Origin: an uncultured Chloroflexia bacterium
GTDB taxonomy: Bacteria; Chloroflexota; Dehalococcoidia; GIF9; UBA5629
DNA length: 64,000 nucleotides
Direction: 5' to 3'
NCBI GenBank assembly: GCA_963848815.1
Contig: CAWKFY010000020.1
Span: forward strand, 74,760-138,759
Below the pieces are notes generated by a model. It saw only the letters and a program-made list of their open reading frames with translations. It did no database searches and was not told where the DNA came from. Position 1 is the first letter of the stretch. Each line of letters starts with the position of its first letter. Shown here piece after piece: positions 21,231-43,010 of the stretch. The position numbers and the translations under genes were made by a program.

Positions 21231-21276
21231 TGGTTGCAGCGACCGGGATTGGACCTGTGACCAGGGGCTTATGAGT
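21231..21276 (-). repeat. tRNA(CAT) 3'-half copy 11 (distal, diverged)
   Basis: tggttgcagcgaccgggattggacctgtgaccaggggcttatgagt aligns to tRNA 42923-42968. Confidence 0.85.
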
Positions 21277-21444
21277 TCCAATCTCCGCTTTTGTTATCGT
21301 TGCAGATTTTGTTAACGTGACACGTCCGGTAATCGCTGTGATATTAAGCTGTCATCGCTGTTCTTTATCTATAGCACGCAATTGTATATACATTGTGCAA
21401 GAGCGCCTTGCCGTGCCATATAATAGTGCGAAGGAGGGGAGAGA

Positions 21445-21865
21445 ATGAGGGATGCAAGTAGTACAATCGGCAATCTGATCGATAAAGCAGGCGTTTCTAT
21501 TATCAGTTCAGTTGATGAAGATGGGTTCCCCAATTCAAAGGCAATGCTTCCACCAAGGAAAAGAGAAGGGATAAAGCATATCTTCTTCACAACCAACACA
21601 TCCTCGATGAGAGTAAAGCAATACACTAAAAATCCGAAAGCCTGTGTGTATTTTTTCGATAAACGCTATCTACAGAGGTGTTATGCTTCGGGGCACCATG
21701 AAAGTCCTGCGTGACAGCGCATCCAAGCAAAGCATCTGGAAGAATGGCGATGAGCTGTATTATCCGAAGGGTGTAACTGATCCTGATTACTGCGTACTCC
21801 GTTTCACCGCTCAAGATGGAAGGTATTACAGCAATTTTAAATCCGAGAATTTTAAGGTTGACTAG
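21445..21865 (+). CDS. pyridoxamine 5'-phosphate oxidase-like / general stress protein 26 (frameshifted)
   Basis: SVDEDGFP...FTTNTSS...NPKACVYF...YYPKGVTDPDY. Confidence 0.85.
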
Positions 21866-21966
21866 ATTAAAGAGAGCGGAATAAGTGAGTGCAGGCATAA
21901 CAGCAGCTATGGCAGCCACCAATGTCTGCCTGTTTCACTGCTGAGTATAATATGAACATAGAAGAA

Positions 21967-22711
21967 TGATTGTCAGGGAAATCCCGGCGAAAAGCATCCT
22001 GTCTGTATCTCAGATCTACGACTATGTCATTAATCCCTATACCGGCTGCCAGCATGCCTGCTCTTACTGCTATGCCCGCGTTTATGAAAAGGTTCACCGG
22101 TCATAAAGAGCCGTGGGGCGAATTTGTCGATGTCAAGGTCAATGCTCCGGACCTGCTGCAAAAAGAAATAACCCGGAAGAAACCGGGCAGGGTCTGGGTA
22201 AGCGGAGTATGCGACCCATATCAACCGCTTGAGTCAAAATATGAACTGAGCCGGCAATGCCTGGCGATACTCAAGCAGCATAAATGGCCCGTAACAGTCC
22301 AGACACGTTCGCCGCTGGTCCTGCGGGATATCGATATATTCAAAGGAATGAATGATCTTGAGGTCGGGCTCACAATCACCACCGCCGATGACAATGATGA
22401 GAAAGCTGTTTGAGCCCCATGCGCCGTCAATAAAGTCCCGGATAAAGGCGCTTGCCGGATTACATGCACAGGGTATCAGTACTTATGCCATGATTGCGCC
22501 AATGCTTCCCGGCGCAGAAGGTCTTGCTTCCATGCTTGCAGGGAAAGTTGATTATATACTGGTTGACCGAATGAATTACCACAATGCCGATTGGGTCTAC
22601 CGGAAGTATGGCCTGGATGAAAAACTCAGTGACGATTTCTTCTATCGGACAAGTCGCGAGCTCGCCTCTGGATGCGAGAAACTGGGCATCGATTGCCGTC
22701 TAGTATGTTAA
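21967..22711 (+). CDS. SPL-like radical SAM protein (frameshifted)
   Basis: NPYTGCQHACSYCYA, VCDPYQP, TRSPLVLRD. Confidence 0.85.
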
Positions 22712-22887
22712 CCTGGGAACCGTGATCTTAAACAGCCTCAATTCCTCAAGTTCTGCCCTTCTACGTTATATGACGACAGTTAGCTCTTAATAGCGTTCGT
22801 AACAGAAATCCCTTATTCGGAAGTGGTAACTAAATATGTTTGAGTCCGGTCGATCTTCCAGGGAAATTGATCAGAGACTTATCAATA

Positions 22888-24741
22888 CTATTTCTTCCTT
22901 TTTAGAAAGGGATTTATCCTGCGAAGGAATTCCCGTGCTTTATTGCGTCTTGCAGCTACACGTTTGCTTGTAGCCGATTGGTGTTCTTTCCCTAAAAAGG
23001 CCCTGCTTACCGCACGCTCGAGCAAGTTATGAAAGCCGAAACTGAATCCGAGCGAAATATATACTATCAAGGCAGAAAGCAATACGGGAAATATCATCTC
23101 ATACGTTCCGTGCGAAAAAAGCCTGGACATAAAGGGGATAAACGACAGCGCTACGAATATAATCGCAACGATGATTAAACCGTGGCGCAGGATCGTCTGG
23201 ATCTTCCGGATACCGAAACGTTGCGCGGCGGGTTGGTCTTTGATCATATGCGCTACACCTTCATCAGCAAGGTTGCTCATATTTTTCAGGACGATTATAA
23301 ATGACGGTAAACACAGTATCATCATTATGGCGCCCATTAACATACCAATCAGGTGTTTTTGCATACCGGTCAAGGTGACGATTTCATCGAAAAATTGCAG
23401 TGCAAATGTCCCTAATCCAACCAGCAAAACAATTATCAGAAGGTTGATGCCAATAATCTTGGCTGTATGTCTCACTATAAACCCGGCCACACTATCCTGA
23501 TTTACAGTGGCATAGAAAGACTGTATGCGGCCGGCAAGATGCTGATAGCTCGACTTTAGCCGGCTTGGGGAGGAGCGTTCGATCAAGGCAGCAACAGAGT
23601 CAGACACTCTGATCAGATACGGAGTTATAAAACATGTGACTGCCGTACATAGTGCTACCAACGGGTAAAGAAAAGAGGCGACTGCCGCGTTCTCCACTCC
23701 GGATTTCATAACAACGAGCGAGAACTCACCCATTTGCGGCATGCTCATGCCAACGTTCAACGCAGTCCTTCCATCATAGCCTGCAAGGAATGTAGCTATT
23801 GTATTAAAAAAGATTTTACCCACTATAAAAACAGCTATCACTATGACAGCTGGTACTACGTAACCGCCGAGTAGAGATAGGTTTATCAGCATACCCATGG
23901 TAACAAAGAATATAGCAGCAAACATCTGCCTTACGGGAGAGGTAACCTCATGAACGTCATTAGAGCTTTGGGTATCTCCAATAAGCGAGCCCATGATAAA
24001 TGCCCCGATTGCAATGGACAGCCCCAGGTATTGTCCGAAAAATGCAGAAGCAAAACATAGTGCCAGGCTGGTGATAAGCAACGCCTCTTTTGAATGGAAT
24101 TGCTGTGTAAAGCGCATAGCTTTCGGTATGAGATTCGATCCAAGGACAACTAAAACAACGATAAATACAACCAGATGCAGAGAAAACATGCCCACGGAAG
24201 CGAGGTCAGCAGTGCCGGTTGATGCAAATTCGGTTAACAAGGCGAAAACGGCAATTGAGATAATGTCTTCGACCAGCAAAGCCCCCAGCACAAGTCTAAT
24301 AAACGGAGCATTAGTCTTACCGCCATCGCTGAATATTTTCGAGACAATAGCGGAACTTGTAATTTGCATAGCATTGCCCAGGAACAGGGCGCCTATTTGT
24401 GACAGGCCTATTAGAAGGCCGATCCAATAGCCCAGGGCAATCATAGCCACACATTCAAAAATGCCGATGAAAAGGATCGAGCCTCCAGCGCTGCGAACTT
24501 TACTCCAGTTAAACTCGAGGCCTATACCAAAGAAGACCAGAACAAGCCCCAGATCGGCAAGATGACTGATGGTCTGCACGTCCGATACGAGGCTTATCGG
24601 CGGCGTATACGGTCCAACCAGCAAACCTGCTACCAGGTATCCCAGTATTGGAGGCTGTTTCAGCTTGCGAAACAGGAGCGTGACAGCGCCTGCCACCACC
24701 AGAATGACAGTGATATCTTTGACAAGTGTTAATTCTTGCAT
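22888..24741 (-). CDS. CPA2 cation:proton antiporter
   Basis: GYLVAGLLVGP, LLVEDI, FFVTMG, QMGEFS. Confidence 0.9.
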   Translation of the reverse strand: MQELTLVKDITVILVVAGAVTLLFRKLKQPPILGYLVAGLLVGPYTPPISLVSDVQTISHLADLGLVLVFFGIGLEFNWSKVRSAGGSILFIGIFECVAMIALGYWIGLLIGLSQIGALFLGNAMQITSSAIVSKIFSDGGKTNAPFIRLVLGALLVEDIISIAVFALLTEFASTGTADLASVGMFSLHLVVFIVVLVVLGSNLIPKAMRFTQQFHSKEALLITSLALCFASAFFGQYLGLSIAIGAFIMGSLIGDTQSSNDVHEVTSPVRQMFAAIFFVTMGMLINLSLLGGYVVPAVIVIAVFIVGKIFFNTIATFLAGYDGRTALNVGMSMPQMGEFSLVVMKSGVENAAVASFLYPLVALCTAVTCFITPYLIRVSDSVAALIERSSPSRLKSSYQHLAGRIQSFYATVNQDSVAGFIVRHTAKIIGINLLIIVLLVGLGTFALQFFDEIVTLTGMQKHLIGMLMGAIMMILCLPSFIIVLKNMSNLADEGVAHMIKDQPAAQRFGIRKIQTILRHGLIIVAIIFVALSFIPFMSRLFSHGTYEMIFPVLLSALIVYISLGFSFGFHNLLERAVSRAFLGKEHQSATSKRVAARRNKAREFLRRINPFLKRKK

Positions 24742-25104
24742 GTACTCGGTTGTTTTTCTTAGCTTTGACCTGTCGTGCTATTACTATCACGACAGGCCGT
24801 GATTATAGTTAAAATTGCTTCAGCAACCGGCGGCTCTATCGGGAAACGCCAAAAAGCGCTTTTGATTATATTCCCCTTGCCATATCCCCGGCAATATCTC
24901 TATGGCGCGTAAAGGCATCGGGCCCGTAATGACATTTAGTTTAACCTAGTCAAATATGGTAGCCTACGATTACATATGCAAAGGTTGCAAAAAATCCAAC
25001 GATCGACCACAGCCAGGCCCACCTCAAATACCTGAATGGCTCATTATAATGAACCGGTAGGGACTATTGCCGCTATAAAACCTGATGTATTATGCGGTAG
25101 CCCT

Positions 25105-26127
25105 ATGAAAATAACCCGTCGCCTTCACAAAGACCAGCAGGGCATGACAGGCCTGGAGACGGCCATTATCCTTATTGCTTTCGTAACTGTGGCGGCTGTA
25201 TTCGGCTACGCCATTCTGAGCGCAGGCCTCTTCTCGGCGGAGAGAGGCAAGGAAACCATCTATGCCGGACTCAACGAGGCCAAGAGCAACCTGGAGCTTT
25301 CCGGTTCGGTCATGGCCAAAAGCGATGACAGCGTCAATGTAAGGTCTATCCTCTTCACAGTCAAGAACGCCATCGCAGGCAACCCCATCGACATGACGCC
25401 CAATGACGGCAGCGGCCACAATAAATGCGTCATCAGCCTCAAGACCAATAACGACTATATCGACAACGTGAAATGGTCCTTCGTCCCCATCGGCGCCGAC
25501 AACGGCAACAACCTTCTGGAAACAGGCGAACAGTTCGAGATCACGGTTGACCTGACCGACCTCGGCTCTGCCGGGTCTCTCAGCGAGAACCTGACGGCCA
25601 ACCAAACATTCACCCTGCAGGTCAAACCGTCGCTGGGCTCCAGCATAACCATCCAGCGGACTTTGCCTCCCGCCATTGGTCCTGTGATGGACCTTGACCT
25701 TATGACCAGCTTTGGCGGCGGCCATTCAACGCAGGCCAGCGAGAATGCCAGCGGCGGTGGCGGGACGCCGGCTCTCACATGCACAGACGTACAGGCATTC
25801 TATATGAGCAACAATATAGCCAACCTTCACTTCTACTTACAGGATAACGGAACTGGTCCAGCTCATATCAGCCCGTCAGGTATTACCATTGCTGTCGATG
25901 GCGGTGGCGCTGTGGTCCCAAGCTGGTGGGTCAATTTCGAAAGCACAAATCCATTTGCAGTAGGGGAAACCTGTCACATAGGAATCGATTTGACATCTGC
26001 ACCGGTTGTGACCCTGCTGCTCGGCGACACGTTTACAGTGACCGTAACACCGGATGGCGGGCCTACACTCACCATAACCAGGACGTTACCGGGCGTGTTG
26101 AGTGCGGGCTACACCGATCTGCCCTAA
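25105..26127 (+). CDS. archaellin (archaeal-type flagellin)-like protein with duplicated globular domain
   Basis: class III signal KDQQG|MTGLETAIILIAFVTVAAVF; C-terminal FTLQVKP...ITIQRTLP motif present twice. Confidence 0.85.
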   Translation: MKITRRLHKDQQGMTGLETAIILIAFVTVAAVFGYAILSAGLFSAERGKETIYAGLNEAKSNLELSGSVMAKSDDSVNVRSILFTVKNAIAGNPIDMTPNDGSGHNKCVISLKTNNDYIDNVKWSFVPIGADNGNNLLETGEQFEITVDLTDLGSAGSLSENLTANQTFTLQVKPSLGSSITIQRTLPPAIGPVMDLDLMTSFGGGHSTQASENASGGGGTPALTCTDVQAFYMSNNIANLHFYLQDNGTGPAHISPSGITIAVDGGGAVVPSWWVNFESTNPFAVGETCHIGIDLTSAPVVTLLLGDTFTVTVTPDGGPTLTITRTLPGVLSAGYTDLP

Positions 26128-26252: not shown

Positions 26253-26293
26253 TGGTGGCAGCGACTGGATTCGAACTAGTGATCGGGGCTTAT
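26253..26293 (-). repeat. tRNA(CAT) 3'-half copy 10
   Basis: tggtggcagcgactggattcgaactagtgatcggggcttat. Confidence 0.92.
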
Positions 26294-26752
26294 TTCTACA
26301 ATTGTGTATTTGACTATACCACCTGGCGTGGGAATCTTAACCTTATCTTTGACTGCATGTCCCATAAGGGCTCTACCCACTGGTGAGTCATTCGAAATTT
26401 TACCATCCGCAGGATTAGATTCAACACGACCTACTATAGTAAACTGCTCAACTTTATTGTCTTGATCAAGAAGTGAAACTTTACTCCCAAAGCCCACCTT
26501 GCGAGAATCAGTTGCCTCACGCATAACCACGGCTTGATTTATCATCCCTTCGATGGTTAGTATCCTTCCCTCGATTTGTCCTTGCTCATTTTTGGCATAG
26601 TCATACTCGGCATTTTCAAGGATGCCGCCGTTCTCTCGTGACACACGCAAGTTCTCGATCACTTCGAGTCTGCGCACGTCACGTAAATGTTCTAGCTCCG
26701 CTTCAAGCTTCAGAATCCCTTCTTTAGTCATCAAAATTTGTTTTACTACCAT
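26276..26752 (-). CDS. greA: transcription elongation factor GreA
   Basis: ENAEYDYAKNEQ, ISNDSPVGRAL. Confidence 0.93.
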   Translation of the reverse strand: MVVKQILMTKEGILKLEAELEHLRDVRRLEVIENLRVSRENGGILENAEYDYAKNEQGQIEGRILTIEGMINQAVVMREATDSRKVGFGSKVSLLDQDNKVEQFTIVGRVESNPADGKISNDSPVGRALMGHAVKDKVKIPTPGGIVKYTIVEISPDH

Positions 26753-27029
26753 ATTGTTCTCCTCCTAAAGTTGAAATAGGATATTGCCAGGCATGTTAAA
26801 AGTAACAAATATTAGCAGCTCTAACCTCTGGATTTAGAGAACTTATTGTTTTATTGACTTAGAAAACGAAAAAGCCGAAAAATAGTTTATGGCTTCTTAA
26901 CCAGGCTCTCAGTACCCTGGAATCTACAATGAAGTTGGGATAAATAGAACTATTTTCTTCGATCAAAGGATTGCCATGGCACTTCGTGCGTCGCAATTAC
27001 ATGGGAAGAAGCTGTGGATTTAAAAGGAA

Positions 27030-27075
27030 TGGTGGCAGCGACTGGATTCGAACTAGTGACCAGGAGCTTATGAGT
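27030..27075 (-). repeat. tRNA(CAT) 3'-half copy 9
   Basis: tggtggcagcgactggattcgaactagtgaccaggagcttatgagt. Confidence 0.93.
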
Positions 27076-27209
27076 GCCCATTGTTGTTTATTATCCTGCT
27101 GTAAACTTTGCTTTACGGCGTCGTACAGGATAGATATACTTTAGCCCAGCAATGTACCCATGATTTTAGATTGTGTGCGACCGAAGCTTATTTTTACGGA
27201 GGGGAAATC

Positions 27210-27768
27210 ATGAAAACCAAAATGGTATGGCTCTACGCACGTTATCCTGGCCGTCCTGGCGATCGTTCTGCCTCTATTTAATATCCCGCTGACAGTGGGT
27301 AATCCCAATCTTGGCTCGACGCCGGCTACGCTGGCAGCAGTCTGTTTGCCGTGGCCTTTCGGCATCGTTATCGCCCTGATTAAGGGCATTTCATCATCCA
27401 TAATATCGGGGAGGCCGTGGGTTGAGATGCCTGCAGGCATCGGTGACATATTCATGGCTATCTTTACTTACTGGCTGGTAAAACACATGCACAGAGGATG
27501 GGCGGCGGCACTGGGGCAGCTTTCACGGCTGGTATTGACCAGCGGCACCGTTGCGCTCTGTGCCAGTGCGGCCTTTGCGCTCAACTTTCTCACTCCGGCC
27601 ACATCGCCCATCCCGGGCCTGACATCGTCGTTCTTTTCCAACCTGGGGATTGGCTGGATATCGATGACCTTCTGGGCGATAGTCCTCTCCGCAGCGGTAA
27701 ACGGCATAGTCTCGGTGATAATTGTGCTGTTATTCTCGCGCCCTATAGAAAACAGTTTGAAAAAATGA
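27210..27768 (+). CDS. membrane protein, ECF S-component-like (frameshift near the start)
   Basis: GGAGG + ATG at 27210; hydrophobic helices. Confidence 0.55.
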
Positions 27769-27813
27769 GAGAGCGTACAGGGACTCTGCGATAGCGTAAT
27801 AAGCTAAAAGATT

Positions 27814-27856
27814 TGGTGATAACGGCCGGGACTGAACCGGAGACCAGGGGCTTGTG
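27814..27856 (-). repeat. tRNA(CAT) 3'-half copy 8 (strongly diverged)
   Basis: tggtgataacggccgggactgaaccggagaccaggggcttgtg. Confidence 0.7.
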
Positions 27857-27885
27857 CATGACTGGATGTTTTAGGGAATAATCGG

Positions 27886-27920
27886 GGGAGGGAACAGGCT
27901 TCGTAATCCTGTTCCCTCCC
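27886..27920. terminator. hairpin, probable terminator
   Basis: GGGAGGGAACAGG-N9-CCTGTTCCCTCCC perfect 13-bp stem between convergent genes. Confidence 0.6.
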
Positions 27921-27933
27921 TGATAATCCCGGA

Positions 27934-28350
27934 TCAGCGATGCTGAATTTGTGGGCTGGATTGATTTGGTGAGACGGGCTGGGCGGCCTGCGCCGGTCGT
28001 GCAGTCTGCATAGACTGGTCCCAGGTAGTTCCATGAGTGTTGGAAAGCGAGACCGTAACCGGCTCATCCACCACTCCCGGCTGTGCAGAAACAACATAGG
28101 TATTCTGCTGCTGTTCGGACTGGACTTCACTCAACGACTGCTGCGCTGATTGGAGCTGTTGCTGCGTTGAGGCGAGCGCCTGCTGAGTCGAATTAAGTGA
28201 GACGCCCAGAGAATTGACCTGATTCTGCAGGCTAAAGACCTGGTCACTGGTTGCATACGAAGAGGCGCAACCAGTCGCCATTAAGACTGCTGACAGGGCC
28301 AGGGCTAGTGAAACAATAAAGATTTTGCTTTTCATTTTGTACCTCCTCAT
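27934..28350 (-). CDS. Gln-rich coiled-coil lipoprotein
   Basis: signal ending ATGC lipobox; heptad Q/L pattern. Confidence 0.65.
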   Translation of the reverse strand: MRRYKMKSKIFIVSLALALSAVLMATGCASSYATSDQVFSLQNQVNSLGVSLNSTQQALASTQQQLQSAQQSLSEVQSEQQQNTYVVSAQPGVVDEPVTVSLSNTHGTTWDQSMQTARPAQAAQPVSPNQSSPQIQHR

Positions 28351-28534
28351 TTATTATTTAATTCTCAGTATAGAGTCAAAACCATGAGATTGCTTGATAG
28401 CCGGCTTATAAAAATCTGATATCAAACTTATATCTGCGTGATGGGCAAATAATTTCTAAATATTTAACAAGTTTTTTAAAGACTAATACATAGCCTATAA
28501 ATATCATCCGGCATTTATAGCTTTGAGCATACTA

Positions 28535-28570
28535 TTAGAAACCTTTAAGTTTGTCGGCATAGCATTCCGG
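28535..28570 (-). pseudogene. putative tyrosine-integrase N-terminal remnant
   Basis: ECYADKLKGF* matches ECYSDKLKGF at about 41.7 kb; lies just 3' of a tRNA fragment. Confidence 0.5.
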
Positions 28571-28615
28571 GGTTTGCTTCGCTATGCTCGTAATGACATG
28601 GTGAAATGAAAGGTT

Positions 28616-28645
28616 TAGTGACAGCGACTGAGATTGAACCAGTGA
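28616..28645 (-). repeat. tRNA(CAT) 3'-end copy 7 (truncated)
   Basis: tagtgacagcgactgagattgaaccagtga. Confidence 0.75.
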
Positions 28646-28738
28646 ATTTTCGCCGTAGATTTCATTTTTAACATTCGTTCCCGCAAGCCTTAACAGAAGT
28701 CGCCCTACTGTGAATGCGAATATAACCACATAAGATCG

Positions 28739-29791
28739 TCACTTCTCTAAATAGCTGCCGTCTGTCCTTAGGCACAAATTGAACCCAAGAGAATCCCCAA
28801 CCGGATCATATAGCCTAATGTAGTCTTTGGCCTTTTTACCATCGTATGAAATATAAGACCGTGTATCAATATTTTGTGTGTCAGATATTCTTTCATAGGC
28901 TAAGGCGACATATGATGCGTCCGGCACCGCAGGACCTTGCGACTGGAATAAATTGCTCTCGGTAATTACCTCTACGGTAAAATCACCGTCAACGGTTAAA
29001 TTATCAACCGGAATATTCTTCCATTCCGCTTTGGGAGAAACAGTATAAGTATCAGTGCTGCGGAAATAGCTCCAGGGAATTAGCTTGTTCCATATTTGAG
29101 CGCCGTTTTGGTCCAGTATCCTGACAACGATGTGATGTTTATCATACTCGCCCAGCGGGCCAACCGTATAATATGCGATTCCGCAGAGATTTATTCCTTG
29201 AATTCTATATGGCAGTCTGTCAGGCGAAAATGTCGTCGCCAATCCCCAGCCCCGTTGATTTAACAATGTTTCATCATCAACGTTATCAATGTTTGCACTG
29301 CTGGCAACACTGGCAAGTCTATATCCGCCGGAGTAATCTGCAGCCACGATAAACATGCCTCTCACTCCCTGGCCCGTAATACTCGGGAGTATGATGAGGG
29401 GAGACGCTTGTGTCTCAGAGTCTGTACTGCTCACAGCATTTCCGGTGTCCCCCCGACAAACCAGGCTTCCATACGAAATAGAGCTGCACTTACAGTTTGT
29501 GTGCCATATGGCAATTTGGTCATGCTGATACTCATCGTTCTTATTGGTTAGAATGTCATAGCGGAGGCTAAGCGGCTTCCAAACCTCTTCAGGCATCGGC
29601 GTCAACACGTTGACAGGTTCTCCTTTAGATCCTGAATATTGCTTGGATGCGGTGTTTTCCGCCGGTTGAGAAGTATTGCTGATCGCCGAAGCGCATGCCG
29701 AATATACCGCCAACATGCTGACAGCCAAGGCTATCAGGATGTAACCCGTGATACCGGAGAGGCTGCAATTCATCTTCTCCATAACAACCAC
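28739..29791 (-). CDS. hypothetical lipoprotein
   Basis: hydrophobic signal ending YSAC; 350 aa. Confidence 0.65.
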   Translation of the reverse strand: MVVMEKMNCSLSGITGYILIALAVSMLAVYSACASAISNTSQPAENTASKQYSGSKGEPVNVLTPMPEEVWKPLSLRYDILTNKNDEYQHDQIAIWHTNCKCSSISYGSLVCRGDTGNAVSSTDSETQASPLIILPSITGQGVRGMFIVAADYSGGYRLASVASSANIDNVDDETLLNQRGWGLATTFSPDRLPYRIQGINLCGIAYYTVGPLGEYDKHHIVVRILDQNGAQIWNKLIPWSYFRSTDTYTVSPKAEWKNIPVDNLTVDGDFTVEVITESNLFQSQGPAVPDASYVALAYERISDTQNIDTRSYISYDGKKAKDYIRLYDPVGDSLGFNLCLRTDGSYLEK

Positions 29792-34740: not shown

Positions 34741-34803
34741 TATTGCCTTCGACTTGATGGTTTTGACTAATCCCTTGTGATGTTGCGACGGAATTGAGAG
34801 GAT

Positions 34804-34845: not shown

Positions 34846-34925
34846 ACGCGCTTGTTAGGTTCTCTATTATTATTGCAAATCTCATTTTTATATGAAATGA
34901 CTATGCATACAATGATTACCATTGC

Positions 34926-35264: not shown

Positions 35265-35323
35265 GATCCTTCCTCAATAAGAAATCATAAGCCCTGGGCC
35301 TGTCGAAGGGAATTTAAAATGAA

Positions 35324-35368
35324 TGGTGGCAGCGACTAGATTCGAACTAGTGACCAAGGGCTTATGAG
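35324..35368 (-). repeat. tRNA(CAT) 3'-half copy 5 (45/45 identical)
   Basis: exact match to 42923-42967. Confidence 0.98.
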
Positions 35369-35453
35369 CTTCCGTTCACTATATTTTTATTTGGATATAT
35401 TAGGAAGTATAATCAAACCCAACTGCTTGTACGCGGGCTTCCGGGAGCGACCA

Positions 35454-36290
35454 ATGACAACAGATAAGATCCACTTTACAAAAGAAAAAGAAACGATGCT
35501 CATGACCTTGAGCGGTCGAGCCATCCAGAGCCAATGGAAGAATCCCATCTTGCGCGATCCCTGGGCTGAAGAAGCGATGCGGCATATCGATTACGACATC
35601 GGCAAGCACTACAAGGGAGTGGGCTCGTGGAGCCTGTGGAGCGAGATCGGATGTACCATCATCGCCACGCGCGCCGCGACCTTTGATCTGCTCACGAACC
35701 GCTATCTGGCCGATCACCCGGATGCGACCGTGCTCCACGTGGGCTGCGGCATGGACAGCCGCGCCTTCCGTGTCAATCCGCCTGCCAGTGTCCAGTGGTT
35801 CGACGTGGATTACCCTGATGTGATCGACCTGCGCCGCCAACTGTTTCCCGAACGGGCCTCCTACCACCTGATAGGTGCATCGCTGGACGATTTACGCTGG
35901 TTGGACGAGGTCCCACGGGACCGGCCCGGGCTGCTTATCGCCGAGGGGGTGCTGCACTACCTGAGCGAAACGGAAGTGAAAGCGCTCCTCAATGCGGTGG
36001 TCGCTCACTTCCCCGGCGGTCAGATGATCTTCGATATCTGCAATCCGTGGATTGTGAAAAGAGCGGGCTCGAACGTCGGGGGCACGGGTGCAACCTACAA
36101 ATGGGGCCTCGATGATCCCCAGGACATCAAGCAGCTTGAGCCAAAGCTTGAGCTGATCAAGGAATTCAGACCAAGCGAACTGGTCGCGTTTTCCCGCTTC
36201 CCGTTGTGGTGGCGTGCCCTTTACCGACTGCAGGAGGTCATCCCCACGCTGCGCAGGATGGAACGCATGGTAGTCTATCGGTTTCAGTAA
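35454..36290 (+). CDS. class I SAM methyltransferase (TcmP/LCM-like)
   Basis: VLHVGCGMDSR, DVDYPDVI, IAEGVLHYL. Confidence 0.9.
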   Translation: MTTDKIHFTKEKETMLMTLSGRAIQSQWKNPILRDPWAEEAMRHIDYDIGKHYKGVGSWSLWSEIGCTIIATRAATFDLLTNRYLADHPDATVLHVGCGMDSRAFRVNPPASVQWFDVDYPDVIDLRRQLFPERASYHLIGASLDDLRWLDEVPRDRPGLLIAEGVLHYLSETEVKALLNAVVAHFPGGQMIFDICNPWIVKRAGSNVGGTGATYKWGLDDPQDIKQLEPKLELIKEFRPSELVAFSRFPLWWRALYRLQEVIPTLRRMERMVVYRFQ

Positions 36291-36303
36291 AGGCGTTGTT
36301 GAA

Positions 36304-37000
36304 ATGAGAACTACAAATAATGTTATAAAGAATCCCAAGGTACAGGTATGGCTCTGGCTTATTGTGTGCTTTGTCCTCATCGCATTCGCACTCTTTCTTT
36401 CGGCTGGGACGTTCAATTATTGGCAGGCATGGATCTATCTCGCCGTAGGCGCCCTATCCAGCGTTCCGCTCACGCTGTACATAACAAAAGACCCGATATT
36501 GCTCGAAAACAGGACGAAGGCCGGGCCTTCGGCGGAGCGGCGGCCCATCCAAAAGATCATCGTGCTTGTTCGCGGGGCTCCCGGCTATCGCAACGTTCAT
36601 CGTTCCCGGGCTCGATCACCGTTTCGGCTGGTCGAGCGTGCCGTCCTGGCTTTCCATTGTCGGCGACCTCTTAATTATCGTTGCAATGTGGATAGTCTAC
36701 CGCGTATTCAAAGAGAACTCTTTCGGCTCCGCCACGGTCGAGATCGGCAAGGATCAAAAGGTAATCTCCACCGGTCCCTACGCCATCGTGCGAAATCCGA
36801 TGTATTCTAGCGCGGCAGTGTACTTCATCGGCATGTCGCTCGCCCTTGGCTCTTATTGGGGACTTATCCCCGCCGTTCTTACGGTCCTTGGCCTTGTCTG
36901 GCGGCTCTTCGACGAGGAAAAGTTCCTTGCTCAAAATCTTCCTGGCTACAGGGAGTATTGCGCCAAAGTGCGTTGGCGTTTGATACCCGGCATTTTCTGA
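36304..37000 (+). CDS. isoprenylcysteine carboxyl methyltransferase family (frameshifted)
   Basis: VISTGPYAIVRNPMY, EEKFL, RLIPGIF. Confidence 0.85.
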
Positions 37001-37099
37001 CTTCGACATGGTGTCAGATTTGCCTTCAACCTTGCATGCCAACGGGAACTCGTTATACACTACCCTACGTAATGCTCTGGCTTGGAGTCAGGTAAAGGC

Positions 37100-37545
37100 T
37101 ATTTAAGTAGTGGCAGAACATTATGATAAGAAGGTGAAAAACGTGGACAGAAAAAGCATTTTGGAACAGGCACGGGAACGGTCGGATGTGATGCTCATAT
37201 TACTCGAGTTAGTTCTGAGCGTGGTATTCATTGTGGTGGGATATCTTACAGATAACAACTATTTCCGTGGAGTCGGTGTCGGATTAATAATTGCTTGGGT
37301 GACAAGTGCCATTGCCTATTTATACAAAAGGAAAATGGTAAAACCATGAGCAACGAAGAGCGTATGACATTCACTTCCCGGCCCAAACCTCTATTCCTCC
37401 ATTACCACCTTTGCCACTCCTTCCGAAGCTTCCTTTACCATTTCCATATCAAGACGTATTCAAGTGACTATTGACCAATCCCCTGTTCAATAACTGGTGC
37501 AATAAAAAGTTTGGTGGCAGCGACTAGATTCGAATTGGTGACCAA
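37100..37545 (+). repeat. duplicated segment, direct repeat of 41982-42415
   Basis: highly similar DNA including the small ORF, spacer and tRNA fragment; 37061-37091 also matches 41841-41871. Confidence 0.92.
37110..37349 (+). CDS. small two-TM protein, copy 1
   Basis: near-identical to 41992-42222. Confidence 0.6.
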   Translation: MAEHYDKKVKNVDRKSILEQARERSDVMLILLELVLSVVFIVVGYLTDNNYFRGVGVGLIIAWVTSAIAYLYKRKMVKP

Positions 37546-37552
37546 GATCTTA
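37512..37552 (-). repeat. tRNA(CAT) 3'-half copy 4
   Basis: tggtggcagcgactagattcgaattggtgaccaagatctta. Confidence 0.93.
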
Positions 37553-37561
37553 TTATTCGCA

Positions 37562-38128
37562 CTAAGGTAGCAGCTTAAATGTACGAATAAGACGGTCGAA
37601 ATCATTGTTAACCTGGTCCACCTTATCGAGTCCGGCATACACCCAGATGTCCCATGCTCTATCTTGATAGTCGAAGAATGCTATCTTTTCGAGTTGTGAG
37701 TGCAGATTAAGAGATGGAACATCCTCCGTGTAAAGCATTAATATCTCACAAGGTATGCCTGAAATATTGTCAGAGGAGCGCTCTATAAGTTCCCTGCCGG
37801 CAACGGAAAGCAGTCTATCAGCAGCCCCTCTTGCGTTGTGGTATTCAATTGGATAGTTATATATGGTACAACCCAACACTATCTCCGAGCCGTCTGACAG
37901 CTTGCCAATAAAGCGGACACCATTCACAGCCCTGGGATCAGAGTATGCATTATTCACGGTCATACTATAAGAATCAGGATATTGAAAAGAGTAATGGTCC
38001 GTTCCATTAAGCTGCTCAAAGGTTCTATAACTAGCAGTATTACAACCAAACAAGGTTATAAGATAGGCGAATACCATAGGTATGCACGTTATTGTTATGA
38101 AAAACTTCTTTCTTTTAACATCCAACAC
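37562..38128 (-). CDS. PsbP-like lipoprotein
   Basis: LFGC lipobox; YSFQYP...FDRLIRTFKLL. Confidence 0.65.
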   Translation of the reverse strand: MLDVKRKKFFITITCIPMVFAYLITLFGCNTASYRTFEQLNGTDHYSFQYPDSYSMTVNNAYSDPRAVNGVRFIGKLSDGSEIVLGCTIYNYPIEYHNARGAADRLLSVAGRELIERSSDNISGIPCEILMLYTEDVPSLNLHSQLEKIAFFDYQDRAWDIWVYAGLDKVDQVNNDFDRLIRTFKLLP

Positions 38129-38163
38129 TCCTCTATTTTATGATGCCTGAATGACAAAAGAAA

Positions 38164-38207
38164 GGTGGCAGCGACTAGATTCGAACTAGTGACCAAGGGC
38201 TTATGAG
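38164..38207 (-). repeat. tRNA(CAT) 3'-half copy 3 (44/44 identical)
   Basis: exact match to 42924-42967. Confidence 0.98.
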
Positions 38208-38326
38208 GGCCAAGTTCAGCTTTTGATATCGTTGCAGACTTCGTTTTACTACTTCTTTTCGCGATACTACGACTATATAAGAGGAAGGGACTATCGTCAA
38301 GACCAGATAGTATATTAACGCTACAC

Positions 38327-38932
38327 TTGACATATTTCGCAGTACAGTCCACTATGAAACAGAATATGACGTCGTCAGACTACATCAGTACTTTCTGTAG
38401 ACAGATTCGCTCGCGTTCAGAGGAACATCATAAAGCGATGGAACTACTGCAAACCGGAGGTGTGCCGTCACAAATGGTATCCATCCTACGTCAAGAACTT
38501 GACTCGATGATCAGAGTCATGTATTTATTATCTATCCCCGACCTTAAGTATCGCGCCGAATTGATGCACGCTTCAATTGAAGGCAAGAAATGGACACAAA
38601 AAGGCACCCGAAAAAGAATTACAGATAGAGATATGGTCGCATTTGCTAATAAACTGCAAGGCTGGGCTGAATCGGTATACCGATTTGGGTGCGATTTTAT
38701 TCACCTTTCGAATTTCCACGATTATCGAAACCGTGACCCTATGGAATCCATATCCCAAAATGAGAAGAAGTCCATACTTAAGCATATGCGCTACTATCAT
38801 GGCGGTCCTCTCTGTTCGAATCCGACATTCGCCGATTTGATTCCGTATTTACCACGGGTGTTCGAAAAAATATCATCGAATCTCGAATGTTATGTGAAAG
38901 ATCTTGAGCACGATAAGAGTTTATCTGAATAG
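38327..38932 (+). CDS. hypothetical helical protein, possibly DUF5677/HEPN-like
   Basis: ILRQELDSMIR...YRFGCDFIH pattern. Confidence 0.55.
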   Translation: MTYFAVQSTMKQNMTSSDYISTFCRQIRSRSEEHHKAMELLQTGGVPSQMVSILRQELDSMIRVMYLLSIPDLKYRAELMHASIEGKKWTQKGTRKRITDRDMVAFANKLQGWAESVYRFGCDFIHLSNFHDYRNRDPMESISQNEKKSILKHMRYYHGGPLCSNPTFADLIPYLPRVFEKISSNLECYVKDLEHDKSLSE

Positions 38933-39039
38933 CACTCAATCGTACCGTACGATTTACCCTCAACCTAACAGGATAGCAGGAAGCTATCAATGGCTTGCTT
39001 TATTGTAGTAACTTTTACTTTCGTGGACATTGAACCTCT

Positions 39040-39110
39040 CCTTATTCTCGTTTGAGTGCGTGAGAAGATAGTCTCGAACTAGCAGAAGGTCAATAGGAAC
39101 GTGGATACCA
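39040..39110 (-). pseudogene. putative tyrosine-integrase 5' remnant
   Basis: VPIDLLLVRDYLLTHSNENK; DNA homologous to 41763-41825. Confidence 0.5.
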
Positions 39111-39145
39111 GTTTTTGATTTGACTGAGGCTTAAAGTGGAAGAAA

Positions 39146-39181
39146 TGGTGGCAGCGACTGGGATTGAACCAGTGACCAAGG
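39146..39181 (-). repeat. tRNA(CAT) 3'-end copy 2 (variant T-arm allele)
   Basis: tggtggcagcgactgggattgaaccagtgaccaagg. Confidence 0.9.
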
Positions 39182-39194
39182 TCTGCCCTCTGCC

Positions 39195-40400
39195 CTACAA
39201 GTGGCAATTGCACCGTCCCATGTTCTCTACGAGGCCAGTACTTTCCCAAAGCGCTTTTTCCTCTAGGCAAAGGGCAATATCCAGGTGTGGGCGAAGGCGC
39301 CGCGCAGATTGGATGATCAGCGAATAGATCTCGTGTCGGACGCTACGGGGATAGCGCGCCCTCCCGTCTTCTGCTTTGGGAGACGCACGGTCGATGTGCT
39401 CCGACACTATATTCCGCGCTCCCATTTTCCTCTCCATAAGGTCAAGAGCACCCCGATAGATACAAATTCCGCCGAGGGTCAGACGCTGTATGGGCACAGT
39501 CTCAAGGAGGCGCTTCGTGAATGCACTGTACACATCTTGCCAGCCGTCAATCGGAATGATAGGCATCATAATGGCGCGCACGGGGTAACCGCATTCGGAA
39601 ACTCGACGCATGGCGTCGAGACGCTCATTGACACCAGGAATGTTCTCCTCAAAGACGGAAGATACTTCCGGAGGATTCACGCTCCACGAAAGGAAGGAGT
39701 GCCCGCGGTGATCCAAGCCCAACAGCCGGTCAACGTAAGCGCTCTTCGTTAGAAGGGTAAGTCGAGCCCATGGATGCTCGGCGAAGAAAGACACCAGTAG
39801 CGTGGAGTAAGCTGTGAGAGAATCCAGAGCCAGGGAATCCTGGAGCTTGCCGAGGTAGAACGCCGTGGGGGTTGCTATTCTTCGCGCAATAGTATCGATT
39901 TGTTGCAGTATTTCGGGTAAGTTGACGTATATCTTGACCGAGGGCGAGAACTTAACGCCAGGGGTTCCGGCCAGGTAGCAGTACCTGCAACCGTACGGGC
40001 AGAATCCATAGGGAGAGAAGTGCCAGTAGTTTGGGCAGGCGTTTCCCTTTTCTTCGGCAAAACGCACTGCGGACGCAAGCTCACCGAACACAAGGGTATG
40101 CTTCCCGGCCCGCTGAAGACTGAGAGGGTCTCGTCCACCCAATTCCAACTGGCTATGTGACGTGTGAATCCGTTCTTCCACGCGCGCCTCCGGGTAAAGA
40201 TCGCAGATGCGTTCGACAAAGCGTCTACGCTCCAAAGTGGCCATACTACCCTTGGCAAGATAGATTTGAGACGGCTGAAAGTGGGCTGGGCGAATGGGTT
40301 CGTAGTCCCGCGGTAGGGTTAGAGAGAAGGCTTGCTGTTGAAATAGGTTTAACTGCTCGGTGTTAGAGATCGCGCGTGCTCCTGCCCAATTAGAACGCAT
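39195..40400 (-). CDS. spore photoproduct lyase-like radical SAM protein
   Basis: CPYGCRYCYL, LLTKS, SWSVNP, LCLE, C-terminal CNC. Confidence 0.85.
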   Translation of the reverse strand: MRSNWAGARAISNTEQLNLFQQQAFSLTLPRDYEPIRPAHFQPSQIYLAKGSMATLERRRFVERICDLYPEARVEERIHTSHSQLELGGRDPLSLQRAGKHTLVFGELASAVRFAEEKGNACPNYWHFSPYGFCPYGCRYCYLAGTPGVKFSPSVKIYVNLPEILQQIDTIARRIATPTAFYLGKLQDSLALDSLTAYSTLLVSFFAEHPWARLTLLTKSAYVDRLLGLDHRGHSFLSWSVNPPEVSSVFEENIPGVNERLDAMRRVSECGYPVRAIMMPIIPIDGWQDVYSAFTKRLLETVPIQRLTLGGICIYRGALDLMERKMGARNIVSEHIDRASPKAEDGRARYPRSVRHEIYSLIIQSARRLRPHLDIALCLEEKALWESTGLVENMGRCNCHL

Positions 40401-40517
40401 GTACTAGTCTAACCCATAAACGAGAGGATTGCAAGACCACCATTGAGGCGACACAAACGTGTTGAGTTGCGTGGGGCAACTTGCTATGCTCAGCATAAGT
40501 AATTAGAACACATGTTC
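40393..40517. promoter_or_regulatory. two putative LexA (Cheo-type) SOS boxes
   Basis: GAAC-ACAT-GTTC at 40506-40517 and GAAC-GCAT-GTAC at 40393-40404. Confidence 0.65.
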
Positions 40518-40540
40518 GGTCTGGTTCCCCTTAACCGAAC

Positions 40541-41476
40541 TTGCTCAAAGGTGGTGAAAAATACATGCTCGCGCACAAAACTCTGAATAATTACGAATGG
40601 CGGCGACTTCACGAGAGGCTCGATAGAGCCATAGCGGAGGCGGCACTTGGCTACTTGCACGAACTCACAATTCGCCGAATACCCATCAATGCACAACAGT
40701 TGGCTGGCGAGCTAGATGAATTAAGATTGGGTAGAGAACCCGATTATGACGTGCCGGGCATCCCTCTCGTTTACGCTCTGAAGTATATGCCCAGGCGCAT
40801 TGTTTCAATATTCGGATCATTGTTTTCCGTACTTGATGGCTGGTACCCGAAGTCGGTACTAGATGTTGGGAGCGGAACTGGAGCGACAGCCATTGCGATG
40901 GATTTGCTGGAACTCCCTCGTCATATCAATCTCTTGGGAATTGAGCCAAGCCAGGAGATGATTCGTTTCTCGGAATGTTCCAGATGGTGGGGCCGTGTCT
41001 CAACCAAATATAGACGAGTCTCGATTGCCGACTTGGCAAAGGATAGCGCAGAACTTATGACCTTCGATTTGGTCGTCTTTTCTGCCTGCTTCCCATATGG
41101 CTTTGACAACTGGAGTCCTTTACTGACCGCGCTTGGTGACTATGAGGGACAAGAGTCTAAGATGATCTTGGCAGTCGAGCCCGAGGCGAAGGCTGACCTC
41201 TTGGCGTCTTTTCAACATCGACTCAGATCCAGGGGTTGGCCGACTATCACCTTCTGCTGTCACGATCTTCCAGACGCAATAAAGGACGATACTCTTACGC
41301 TCCGTGAAATGTTGAATGTATGGCGGCGTCTTGGCATGGACGAGTCAAATCGACCCAAGACCTGGTGGAATCCACCCAACGACAAGTTTTTGGTGGCAAA
41401 CCCCAAACCCATACGACCGTGCAGTCAGCCGACGATCCATGGCTCGTTATCTCCTATCAAAGTCCTGCATTGGTAA
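40541..41476 (+). CDS. class I SAM methyltransferase (Rsm22-like)
   Basis: YALKYMP, VLDVGSGTGA, IEPS, LAVEP. Confidence 0.75.
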   Translation: MLKGGEKYMLAHKTLNNYEWRRLHERLDRAIAEAALGYLHELTIRRIPINAQQLAGELDELRLGREPDYDVPGIPLVYALKYMPRRIVSIFGSLFSVLDGWYPKSVLDVGSGTGATAIAMDLLELPRHINLLGIEPSQEMIRFSECSRWWGRVSTKYRRVSIADLAKDSAELMTFDLVVFSACFPYGFDNWSPLLTALGDYEGQESKMILAVEPEAKADLLASFQHRLRSRGWPTITFCCHDLPDAIKDDTLTLREMLNVWRRLGMDESNRPKTWWNPPNDKFLVANPKPIRPCSQPTIHGSLSPIKVLHW

Positions 41477-41692
41477 TATCCCTTATAAGTCCCAATTTCA
41501 CACGAGAGTGTGGTGGAGTCGTCACCGAACAAGCACGCTGATCCAAATTGGTGTGTTGACCCTTGTTGTCAAAAGTCTGACTTATATTTCGAAAAATCAG
41601 GGGTACTCTCCCTTTTTCGGTCTCAGCCCAATTAATATGTCAACAGAACCGAGGAGATTATAGTTCATGCTGGACTTTAAATAGGGGTAAGA

Positions 41693-41830
41693 TCAACACC
41701 AGTAGAAACCTTTCAACTTGTCAGAATAGCACTCTATTGTTTCATAGGGCTTGCCTTCCACTTCTCGTTTGAGTGCGTGAGAGGATAATCCTTTTATGGA
41801 GAAGGTCAATAGGTATGTGGATACACGTTT
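41693..41830 (-). pseudogene. putative tyrosine-integrase N-terminal remnant
   Basis: IPIDLL..DY.LT..VEGKPYETIECYSDKLKGFYW* resembles XerC/D-type core-binding domain starts. Confidence 0.55.
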
Positions 41831-41991
41831 AGTTGTATCATACCCTACGTAATGCTCTGGCTTGGGGTCAGTGGGGATATAGACATATATATTCTGGCAC
41901 TGGTTCATTCTAGCTATCGAAAAAGGTGAAGCCTCGATTAAGAGGTTGCCTAAATAAAGAACCCCGCCCTAAAGGACAGGGTATTTAAGTA

Positions 41992-42222
41992 GTGGCAGAA
42001 CATTATGATAAAGAGGTGAAAAACATGTGGAGAAAAAGCATTTTGAAGGTACGGTTGGATACGACGCTCATATTATTCGAGTTAGTTCTGAGCGTGGTAT
42101 TCATTGTGGTGGGGTATCTTATAGATAACAACTATATCCGTGGAGTCGGTGTCGGATTGATAATTGCTTGGGTGACAAGTGCCATAGCCTATTTATACAA
42201 AAAGAAAATGGTAAAACCATGA
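41992..42222 (+). CDS. small two-TM protein, copy 2
   Basis: paralog of 37110-37349. Confidence 0.6.
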   Translation: MAEHYDKEVKNMWRKSILKVRLDTTLILFELVLSVVFIVVGYLIDNNYIRGVGVGLIIAWVTSAIAYLYKKKMVKP

Positions 42223-42384
42223 GCAACGAAGAGCGTATGGCATGCACTTCCCAGCCCAAACCTCTATTCCTCCATTACCACCTTTGCCACGCCTTCCGAA
42301 GCTTCCTTTACCATTTCCTTATCAAGACGTATTCAAGTGACTATTGACCAATCCCCTGTTCAATGAATGGTGCAATAAAAATAA

Positions 42385-42421
42385 TGGTGGCAGCGACTAG
42401 ATTCGAATTGGTGACTTATGA
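42385..42421 (-). repeat. tRNA(CAT) 3'-half copy 1 (internal deletion)
   Basis: tggtggcagcgactagattcgaattggtgac-ttatga. Confidence 0.92.
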
Positions 42422-42454
42422 ATGATACAGCCCGATAAGTGGCAAAACTTGGCT

Positions 42455-42667
42455 TTATTTGACCACAATATACTCGGCAAATGAATTCGACTTAGGGACT
42501 GACACTTTATCTTCGATTAGTCCCTTAACATGCAGCTCTATAGCTTCGTGCATATTCTTCTCAACTTCCTCACGGGTAGATCCAGTAGCTACGCAACCTG
42601 GCAGATCGGGTGAATATGATGAGTAATTATCGTTTATTTTCTCAATTACAATAAGAAAGCGGTGCAC
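42455..42667 (-). CDS. hicB: HicB antitoxin (short form)
   Basis: YSPDLPGCVATGSTREE...EAIELH. Confidence 0.92.
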   Translation of the reverse strand: MHRFLIVIEKINDNYSSYSPDLPGCVATGSTREEVEKNMHEAIELHVKGLIEDKVSVPKSNSFAEYIVVK

Positions 42668-42668
42668 C

Positions 42669-42860
42669 TTACCGTTCCTCCTTAAGCTCAGCTTGTTTCA
42701 AAATGCTATTCAATGTTCATGGTGCTAAATCATCATCCGGTTTACCTGCGATCGTAATACGTCCGGGTTTCGATTGATGCTTATATTGCCTATGACTTCC
42801 CTTTGTAACCAAATACCACCCGTGAGCTTCAATCAATTTAATAACATCCCGTACTTTCAT
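42669..42860 (-). CDS. hicA: HicA mRNase toxin (frameshifted near the 3' end)
   Basis: MKVRDVIKLIEAHGW..KGSHRQYKH..KPGRITIAG; TLNSILKQA in another frame. Confidence 0.88.
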
Positions 42861-42922
42861 CCCAACATCAATGATATTATTTTTGACTGCCATTTGGAAA
42901 TAAAAGATTTGATGAAAAGGAA

Positions 42923-42997
42923 TGGTGGCAGCGACTAGATTCGAACTAGTGACCAAGGGCTTATGAGTCCCCTGCTCTACCACTGAGCTACGCTGCC
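42923..42997 (-). tRNA. tRNA with CAT anticodon, most likely elongator tRNA-Met (Ile2 not excluded)
   Basis: GGCAGCG/CGCTGCC acceptor stem, D-arm GCTC/GAGC, loop CTCATAA, T-arm ACTAG-TTCGAAT-CTAGT, encoded CCA; G1-C72 pair argues against initiator. Confidence 0.97.
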
Positions 42998-43010
42998 ACA
43001 ACAAGCTAAA

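Follow-up and report, generated by a model that had tools for sequence, protein, structure and literature searches.

The stretch of DNA analysed here (the window; 64,000 nucleotides, contig C20, positions 74760-138759) comes from G000, a metagenome-assembled genome (MAG) of an uncultured member of the Dehalococcoidia, which consists of 46 contigs with a total of 2.25 Mb and is 74.7% complete. The only tRNA gene in the window, a tRNA-Met(CAU) on the minus strand (42923-42997), is followed by eleven partial copies of its own 3' half, which together with the units that they bound (U1 to U11, counted from the tRNA) occupy 21.8 kb. This array is very probably a tRNA-anchored island that arose by the tandem accretion of small integrase elements, whose integrases have since been deleted. 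The initial annotation had proposed two explanations, an integron-like platform served by a recombinase in trans, and serial integration with later loss of the mobile parts by deletion. Since integrase stubs are present at the heads of four of the eleven units, and two congeners have an intact integrase at the same tRNA, the second explanation is directly supported.

The tRNA-Met gene, found by ARAGORN and matched by the Rfam tRNA model with 69.1 bits, is the attachment site of the array and would form the attL side of its newest unit. A promoter scan gave it a sigma-70-like promoter (43039-43011; 11/12). The tRNA sequence is 100% identical in five of five congeners, and the gene is present in all 41 genomes searched. 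Its eleven copies, each derived from the 3' 23-46 nt, lie downstream on the minus strand, all in the same orientation and in register, where the initial annotation had placed them. Each copy ends the unit of the same number, and the units are 538, 3239, 982, 652, 2188, 520, 6188, 802, 784, 777 and 5022 bp long, within 1 bp of the lengths first reported; seven of the eleven are shorter than 1 kb.

Compared with the last 46 nt of tRNA-Met, the copies range from nearly exact to strongly diverged. The closest are fragment 5 (35324-35368; 45/46), fragment 3 (38164-38207; 44/44, with the final A absent), fragment 9 (27030-27075; 43/46) and fragment 4 (37512-37555; 40 identities). Fragment 1 (42385-42430; 34/46, profile E=5e-10) has a 7-nt deletion in its upstream part and retains the last 23 nt exactly. 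Foreign T-arms are found in fragment 2 (39146-39185; 34 identities, E=2e-11), where the stem is compensated as ACTGG/CCAGT, and in fragment 11 (21231-21276; 36/46, E=6e-10), the last of the array. Fragment 10 (26253-26294) has 34 identities. The diverged copies are fragment 6 (34804-34849; 32/46), fragment 7 (28616-28661; 27/46), which has an integrase stub 44 nt downstream, and fragment 8 (27814-27859; 29/46, T-stem CCGG/CCGG), the weakest of all.

The last 20 nt of the tRNA, with up to three mismatches, occur seven times in the window and not once in 100 shuffles. Because a profile built from all twelve copies is circular, a second one was made from the tRNA and just the eight strong copies, and the entire 2.25-Mb assembly was searched with it. 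With this control profile, the copies at 34804 (E=7e-4) and 28616 (E=6e-3) are recovered, while the copy at 27814 (E=3.2) is not significant alone. Ten fragments are thus statistically solid, and the one at 27814 is only probable; it is supported by its orientation, by a compensated T-stem and by 29/46 identities in register (binomial tail times positions = 0.007). Should it prove spurious, U8 and U9 would merge into a single unit of 1586 bp. Scatter of the tRNA half through the genome, which the initial annotation would have taken as counter-evidence, was not seen in the assembly: the only good copy away from the locus is on contig C9 (567-611), in addition to a weak match on C36. The C9 copy is a 55-nt fragment (tRNA positions 21-75) between two archaellin paralogues (G000:C9:1-1712), distant from the array. 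Since the congener G004 has a fragment with the same tRNA positions, distant from its own array (C1:2120710-2120764), the C9 fragment looks like a separate conserved locus.

The identity block of the fragments extends from the anticodon loop through CCA. In the diverged fragments the T-stem is kept by compensatory changes: 85% of the cells are paired, compared with 3-40% when the partner is slid, and seven T-stem cells are changed on both sides. These changes indicate that the diverged fragments are displaced, once-functional tRNA halves from other lineages. The compensated T-stems of the foreign halves also argue for a crossover 5' of the T-arm; the simplest position would be the anticodon loop, at the start of the identity block. 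An imperfect palindrome (...CACGTCATTGCGAAGCACGAAGTGCTGTGGCAATCC...) recurs just 3' of many fragments, in the heads of U10 (window ~26960-27029) and U8, at C9:612-680 and in several heads of G001, G004 and G005; it may be a putative tRNA terminator supplied by the element, or a protein-binding site.

An intact tyrosine integrase of 314 residues is encoded inside the array of two congeners, G005 and G001. It matches PF00589 at 2.9e-31, and the two enzymes are 81% identical. In G005 the gene starts 115 nt downstream of the tRNA, and in G001 it is preceded by a fragment and a 636-nt arm. The two intact elements measure 7.3 and 7.5 kb, and each has at its distal end a 45-nt fragment that begins at tRNA position 31. 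The nearest named relatives of the enzyme are of the Xer type (NCBIfam XerA/integron-integrase, 7.7e-50, below cut-off; PDB XerA 5hxy, 1.8e-28). No match covers residues before about residue 10, and the enzyme would be a two-domain, Xer-like integrase with no room for a separate arm-binding domain. A scan of IMG/VR with the integrase found no relative and no sign of phage origin in that collection.

The window itself contains none of the eight PF00589 matches of the assembly and not the single PF00239 match (on C35), in agreement with the initial annotation, which had noted the lack of an intact integrase. It had overlooked four N-terminal integrase stubs, which were detected by tblastn with the G005/G001-type integrase and by alignment, all co-oriented on the minus strand, at the heads of U2, U3, U5 and U8. 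The best preserved is at the head of U3 (38917-39145), where a complete integrase promoter arm (TTGACC...TATCTT, ribosome-binding site and ATG) runs into integrase codons 1-38 (39030-38917), which are 92% identical to the intact G005 enzyme (tblastn E=1e-16); the reading frame stops after codon 38, with unrelated DNA beyond. The U3 arm aligns to the G005-type head arm with a score of 173, compared with at most 21 for the other heads, and a search of the other ten heads for this arm found none. The U2 stub (residues 12-43, 41699-41794; 62% identity, E=7e-8) lies within an open reading frame (ORF) of 71 residues (41693-41908), with a promoter remnant nearby (41809-41782). The U8 stub comprises residues 30-48 (ECYxDKLKGF; 28517-28573; 68% identity, E=0.004). 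The U5 stub (residues 15-27, 37016-37054; E=0.4) is weak alone, and is collinear with the stub and the deletion junction in G004 and G005. At the other end of the gene, a profile search of six-frame translations of the whole G000 assembly for C-terminal integrase remnants gave nothing below E=0.86.

The heads of U2 and U5 have a further feature in common, a repeat of 447 bp on the minus strand. The U5 copy (37096-37542; 91.3% identical to the other copy by self-BLAST) contains an ORF for a membrane-like protein of 79 residues (37110-37349, plus strand), and the U2 copy (41978-42415), with an ORF of 76 residues (41992-42222, plus strand), is 94.8% identical to the arm before the intact G001 integrase. 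The fragments next to these arms, at 42385 and 37512, share a variant sequence just as their arms are 91% identical, and each fragment goes together with the head of its distal neighbour. On this sequence evidence, at least four of the eleven units are demonstrably integrase elements from which the integrase has been deleted. The other seven units presumably decayed from an integrase-bearing element as well.

The observations to be accounted for are the fragments, the stubs, the intact integrases at the orthologous site, the variable arrays, and the foreign halves with compensated T-stems. Under tandem accretion, small integrative elements would have integrated repeatedly and site-specifically into the 3' half of tRNA-Met(CAU). 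The parent element would carry a Xer-like tyrosine integrase just downstream of attL and one to several cargo genes, with an intact length of 7-10 kb. Each incoming element would bring a new tRNA 3' half and shift the previous half to the far end of the element, where it would persist as an attR scar. Later, every integrase of the G000 array would have been lost by deletion except for promoter arms and N-terminal stubs, most probably in this order of events. The residue would be cargo units flanked by att sites, similar to the remnants known as cis-mobilizable elements (CIMEs), and the units shorter than 1 kb would have arisen by deletion rather than by the direct entry of mini-circles. The units lack integrase and transfer genes and keep the fragments and conserved tails, which is what defines a CIME at the sequence level. 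The 50 array ORFs scanned in G000 and its relatives, in which those of the intact elements were only sampled, included no replication, transfer or relaxase genes.

Several points do not fit this history well. In seven of the eleven units (U1, U4, U6, U7, U9, U10 and U11), neither a stub nor an arm of the tRNA-Met integrase is detectable. Fragments farther from the tRNA are not consistently less similar to it. The hicAB genes stand beside the tRNA both in G000 and in G018, a member of another genus, with 82.6% identity, which is about core-like; if they were inherited vertically in this position, the later units must have come in at fragments inside the array, a route that is not expected under strict stacking. 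Two T-stem mismatches are common to fragments 42385 and 37512 and missing from their relatives in G005 and G001. None of the explanations tested accounts for these mismatches, and gene conversion between copies in the array would be no more than a guess. Finally, no excision product or empty site was observed.

The relatives are uncultured Dehalococcoidia of peat, fen and soil. The orthologous tRNA-Met locus was compared in nine other genomes, five from congeners and four from other genera. Its right flank, with genes for an ArsR regulator, MvhD and hydrogenase subunits, is 87-89% identical within the genus and 82.5% identical in G018, and has a G+C content of 59%, compared with 39-52% for the units. 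Compared with the 11 fragments of G000, the congeners have 6, 5, 3, at least 1 and 1, and the other genera 3, 2, 1 and 0; in G007, from another genus, the tRNA has no fragment in the 17 kb examined, which is compatible with an empty site. Homologues in the other nine arrays exist for 9 of the 33 array ORFs of G000. A fixed gene order among relatives, which the initial annotation had named as an argument against its proposal, is therefore not what the loci show: fragment counts and cargo vary. U11 shares parts with the most distal unit of G004 at a core-like identity of 84-89% (BLAST), and this common distal unit fits the expectation that the oldest unit lies farthest from the tRNA.

A census of 51 units in 21 non-redundant arrays gave 3 units with a full integrase, 16 with a partial one only and 32 with none. 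The median unit is 1606 bp long, and seven of the eleven census units shorter than 1 kb belong to G000, which is the extreme case. In many other Dehalococcoidia (L025, L028, L029, L030, L034, L036, L041 and L054), all that is left of the integrase beside tRNA-Met is its last 50-60 codons, 12-100 nt downstream of the tRNA, with at least four different deletion junctions. A site-specific enrichment of such C-terminal remnants beside tRNA-Met was considered and set aside: it is at least partly a sampling effect, since the loci were found via a C-terminal peptide pattern.

A different kind of repeat is present in L023 (a G017 contig), L038, L039, L047 and L035, where the last ~69 nt of the integrase gene (residues 292-314) recur in tandem, co-oriented and 0.5-5 kb apart, without tRNA fragments. 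These repeats start sharply at TGTCAGGC, just past the catalytic RY codons, and in five clear cases they are preceded by a conserved arm of ~70 nt ending in GTTCACCAAA, which is also found alone, without an adjoining integrase end. In G017 and two other genomes they separate further units of 0.5-2 kb; G000 has no repeats of this kind. They may represent a putative second attachment site inside the integrase gene, with stacked cassettes.

The integrase-less units might also, possibly besides decay, form a live cassette system, an idea that we take seriously but do not hold to be probable. The tRNA halves of ~45 nt would then be complete sites for a simple Xer-like recombinase, and an integrase acting in trans, from a resident or an incoming element, would release a unit as a circle between two neighbouring fragments and insert it anew, either at the tRNA or at one of the fragments; such units would be functional analogues of integron cassettes or of cis- or trans-mobilizable elements. 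One case is U5, with its LCM-type and PEMT-like methyltransferase genes, in which the integrase is truncated at an identical junction in G000, G004 and G005. Its pairwise identities are 96.1%, 95.0% and 94.1%, compared with core flanks of 77-89% and 89.9%; the homology does not reach beyond the bounding fragments, and in the arrays U5 stands as the 5th, 3rd and 4th unit, with different neighbours. Since one junction thus recurs in three species, above core identity and in different contexts, integrase-less units may be moved in trans, as part of the first proposal of the initial annotation had it. A single-gene DUF1254/DUF1214 unit with an integrase stub is likewise 90.9% identical between genera, compared with 82% for the core flank, although its heads differ between G001 and G018, which favours homologous recombination.

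The ends of the units also bear on this question. A tail motif, CTGCAACGATA, stands exactly 30-31 nt before the fragment in seven units with unrelated cargo from five genomes. In the window it lies 31 nt upstream of fragment 3 and 30 nt upstream of fragment 11, and its exact form occurs three times in the 2.25-Mb assembly, twice at fragments. The Xer-like integrase, apparently two-domain and with no room for an arm-binding domain, also speaks for a cassette system, as does the lack of a full integrase in 48 of the 51 census units. However, four units in the window are demonstrably decayed autonomous elements, the genes of the array lie in both orientations, and an integrase of the tRNA-Met type was not found in the assembled G000 genome, which is 74.7% complete. 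Homologous recombination via the conserved fragments, arms and stubs could also move units without a site-specific step. The sequences thus make it evident that integrase-less units have spread horizontally, either by trans-acting site-specific recombination or by homologous recombination through conserved ends. It is a tentative and rather doubtful extension of this idea that the 45-nt tRNA-Met halves are self-sufficient Xer-like sites and that single-gene units are exchanged between species as cassettes by an integrase in trans, in an independently arisen, tRNA-anchored counterpart of the integron.

Public sequencing runs contain at most 12% of the sampled words of 33100-43099 in any one run. 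Short Logan contigs from four runs of other samples carry U2- and U5-type sequence at 90-99.5% identity, and some of them join positions that are apart in G000: 42224 to 39140 (two runs, two studies), 41965 to 37100 (two runs, one study) and 26997 to 35324 (one run). These joints put unit ends in other contexts, in a manner in which a circle, a tandem copy and the array of a relative are indistinguishable. Metagenome scans with a U5 tail-fragment-head junction pattern and with a U5 tail pattern gave no matches each.

Integrons consist of mostly single-gene units between short recombination-site repeats, and their recombinase belongs to the Xer-like branch of the tyrosine recombinases. The G000 array resembles them in both respects, and the congener integrase matches the integron-integrase model TIGR02249. 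The match is weak, however, at 58.5 bits against a cut-off of 265, and the array is not an integron. A true integron-type platform, in which a fixed integrase and primary site would gather promoterless cassettes with attC-like sites behind one promoter, is very improbable here. G000 has no integrase in or beside the array, and in the congeners the integrase is inside the newest element instead of a fixed platform and differs between G005 and G001. The platform features intI, attI and Pc are lacking, the repeats are tRNA 3' halves rather than attC sites, and the units stem from autonomous elements. The 33 array ORFs (fragment-overlap artefacts excluded) are distributed about equally over the strands, 17 and 16, rather than being co-oriented behind a common promoter. 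This part of the first proposal of the initial annotation therefore falls away.

An artefact or a non-integrative origin deserves hardly any credence, whether the fragments are put down to chance, to a chimeric contig of the MAG or to tRNA pseudogenes amplified locally. In its favour, this MAG of 46 contigs has two contig ends (G000:C9:15559-20356 and C5:1-4780) that overlap at 96% identity, which points to mixed strains or to a recent duplication within the bin, and fragment 27814 lacks significance alone. Against it, the expected number of chance matches is zero compared with the seven observed, the same architecture is found at the same tRNA in the single-contig 2.46-Mb genome G004 and in independent assemblies, and the integrase stubs have the predicted place and orientation.

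The accretion of integrase elements best accommodates these observations, and its likeness to known systems can be followed in some detail. In the published account of streptococcal ICESt1/CIME arrays (PMC5704250), elements integrate at the 3' end of a target gene, their integration genes decay with attL and attR kept, and further integration yields tandem arrays, the same sequence of events as proposed for G000. As described there, such arrays usually comprise two or three elements of many kb that derive from conjugative or mobilizable elements, whereas G000 has 11 units in 21.8 kb, 7 of them below 1 kb. The parent elements of the G000 type have an integrase and cargo only, with no transfer, replication or relaxase genes detected in the sampled ORFs of the intact elements.

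The tycheposon islands of Prochlorococcus, according to the preprint on them (bioRxiv 10.1101/2020.12.28.424599), lie beside tRNAs and consist of tandem elements separated by a partial tRNA copy, in which newer elements push older ones inward; they contain scattered fragmented integrases, extra partial tRNAs and adaptive accessory cargo. This architecture matches the G000 array. However, the tycheposons in that text carry replication modules (primase, helicase), some resembling phage-inducible chromosomal islands, and none were seen among the 50 scanned array ORFs. The host phylum differs from that of the tycheposons, and so, apparently, does the integrase, here Xer-like and of 314 residues.

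The ssrA islands of Dehalococcoides belong to the same bacterial class and, as reported (PMC3146451), they show the same tandem layout behind an RNA gene: multiple islands lie 3' of this small-RNA gene with direct repeats of its 3' end. Some of them have no integration module and are discussed by those authors as possible cis-mobilizable elements. They differ in that the target is ssrA, the repeat is 20 bp long, a large serine recombinase, DsiB, is encoded in a module of six genes, and the islands are about phage-sized, whereas the G000 array has a tRNA-Met target, a 45-nt repeat, a single tyrosine recombinase and units of 0.5-6 kb. The array thus differs from the CIME, tycheposon and ssrA systems, as far as these accounts describe them, in its recombinase, its minimal parent element and its degree of miniaturisation. 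The mechanism, accretion with CIME formation, is already known, and is found here in an unusually miniature form. A full-text literature search, which did not extend to the supplementary files of the cited papers, returned no account of such arrays in Dehalococcoidia.

The cargo of the array is diverse. U1 contains hicA (42717-42893, 29 nt after the tRNA; HicA_toxin 1.9e-13) and hicB (42455-42667; HicB_lk_antitox 2.8e-12), both on the minus strand. U2 has a gene for a radical S-adenosylmethionine (SAM) protein of the SPL family (39195-40400, minus; Pfam SPL 2.4e-35) and one for a SAM methyltransferase (40541-41476, plus; NCBIfam, below cut-off). The protein of 201 residues in U3 (38327-38932, plus), labelled DUF5677-like in the initial annotation, matches that family weakly (E=0.0055, below cut-off). 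The ORF of 188 residues in U4 (37562-38128, minus) has no family match in Pfam or NCBIfam. U5 encodes an LCM-type methyltransferase (35364-36290, plus; Pfam LCM 9.7e-18) and a truncated PEMT-like membrane methyltransferase (36304-36810, plus), whose full-length G005 homologue matches PEMT at 1.3e-14. U6 has an ORF of 90 residues (34926-35198, minus) without a Pfam family match.

According to Pfam, the long unit U7 (cargo 28739-34740) encodes an AhpC/TSA peroxiredoxin, a PKD/CopC protein, an ABC-F ATPase and a pentapeptide-repeat protein, as well as a protein of 350 residues without a family match. The coiled-coil-like ORF of 138 residues in U8 (27934-28350, minus) has homologues (cluster 2) in the arrays of G001, G002, G004, G005 and G019. 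U9 has a membrane-like ORF of 157 residues (27295-27768, plus; weak ECF_trnsprt match, E=0.0033), and U10 carries greA (26276-26752, minus; GreA_GreB 4.5e-25, N-terminal domain 4.5e-24). The cargo of U11 (21369-26127) comprises genes for an archaellin (25036-26127, plus) and a Na+/H+ exchanger (22888-24741, minus), both assigned by Pfam, and small ORFs. To our knowledge, archaellin genes are unusual in a bacterium; further archaellin paralogues are located on C43 (three copies), C29 and C38. Most of the cargo labels of the initial annotation (hicA and hicB, one SPL-type radical SAM protein, methyltransferases, ABC-F, pentapeptide protein, greA and archaellin) are borne out by Pfam. Three are not: the names PsbP-like (U4), GIY-YIG-like (U6) and second SPL-like radical SAM protein (28739-29791) find no Pfam match at E<=1, and the first and last of these ORFs have no NCBIfam match either.

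Other loci of the G000 genome show related arrangements. Full-length integrases adjoin tRNA-Val, tRNA-Gly and tRNA-Pro, with one to four 3' fragments per tRNA. The tRNA-Val(tac) island (G000:C20:37448-57018), outside the window, has an adjacent integrase frame of 394 residues and fragments ~7.6, 12.5 and 19.2 kb away. The islands at tRNA-Gly(tcc) (G000:C24:49975-61467) and tRNA-Pro(ggg) (G000:C38:31555-37028) each have an intact integrase and one fragment, 11.4 and 5.4 kb away, respectively. These integrases and fragments indicate that tRNA-targeted integration is routine in the G000 organism. A second array of small units, also outside the window, is found at the initiator tRNA-fMet (42873-42947, minus strand; G000:C31:38057-42947). 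Its fragments start at 41454, 40148 and 39182, a damaged, near-full-length tRNA copy lies at 38057, and the units are 1.0-1.4 kb long; the downstream flanks are conserved (...AAAAAGCCCGTCTT...), and no PF00589 match was found near the array.

Within the window, the [NiFe]-hydrogenase large-subunit gene has its 3' end (...DPCVSCSTH...KFK stop), together with its terminator hairpin, in three co-oriented copies (50544-50749, 57119-57243 and 57806-58012). They bracket inserts of 6.4 kb and 0.56 kb that are absent from three congeners. The cargo at this locus includes DUF134 and DUF5320 proteins, a MinD/Fer4 protein, a NifX-like protein, a methyltransferase and a radical SAM protein, and no recombinase was found. 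The locus looks like the result of integration into the 3' end of a protein gene with replacement of that end, by the same logic as at the tRNA. Two tandem paralogues of a family III CoA-transferase (60563-61755 and 61932-63124) are 69.6% identical at the nucleotide level.

The array shows how streamlined, uncultured Dehalococcoidia of soil and peat, with genomes of ~2.2 Mb, gain and keep accessory genes. One tRNA gene receives the incoming elements, and their mobile backbone is then removed until hardly anything beyond a cargo gene and a 45-nt scar is left. Arrays of this kind are a readable, ordered record of acquisition, and they offer a natural test bed for the mobility of att-flanked remnants. 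If mobilisation in trans proves true, integrons would have a counterpart in a second system of cassette arrays that evolved independently.

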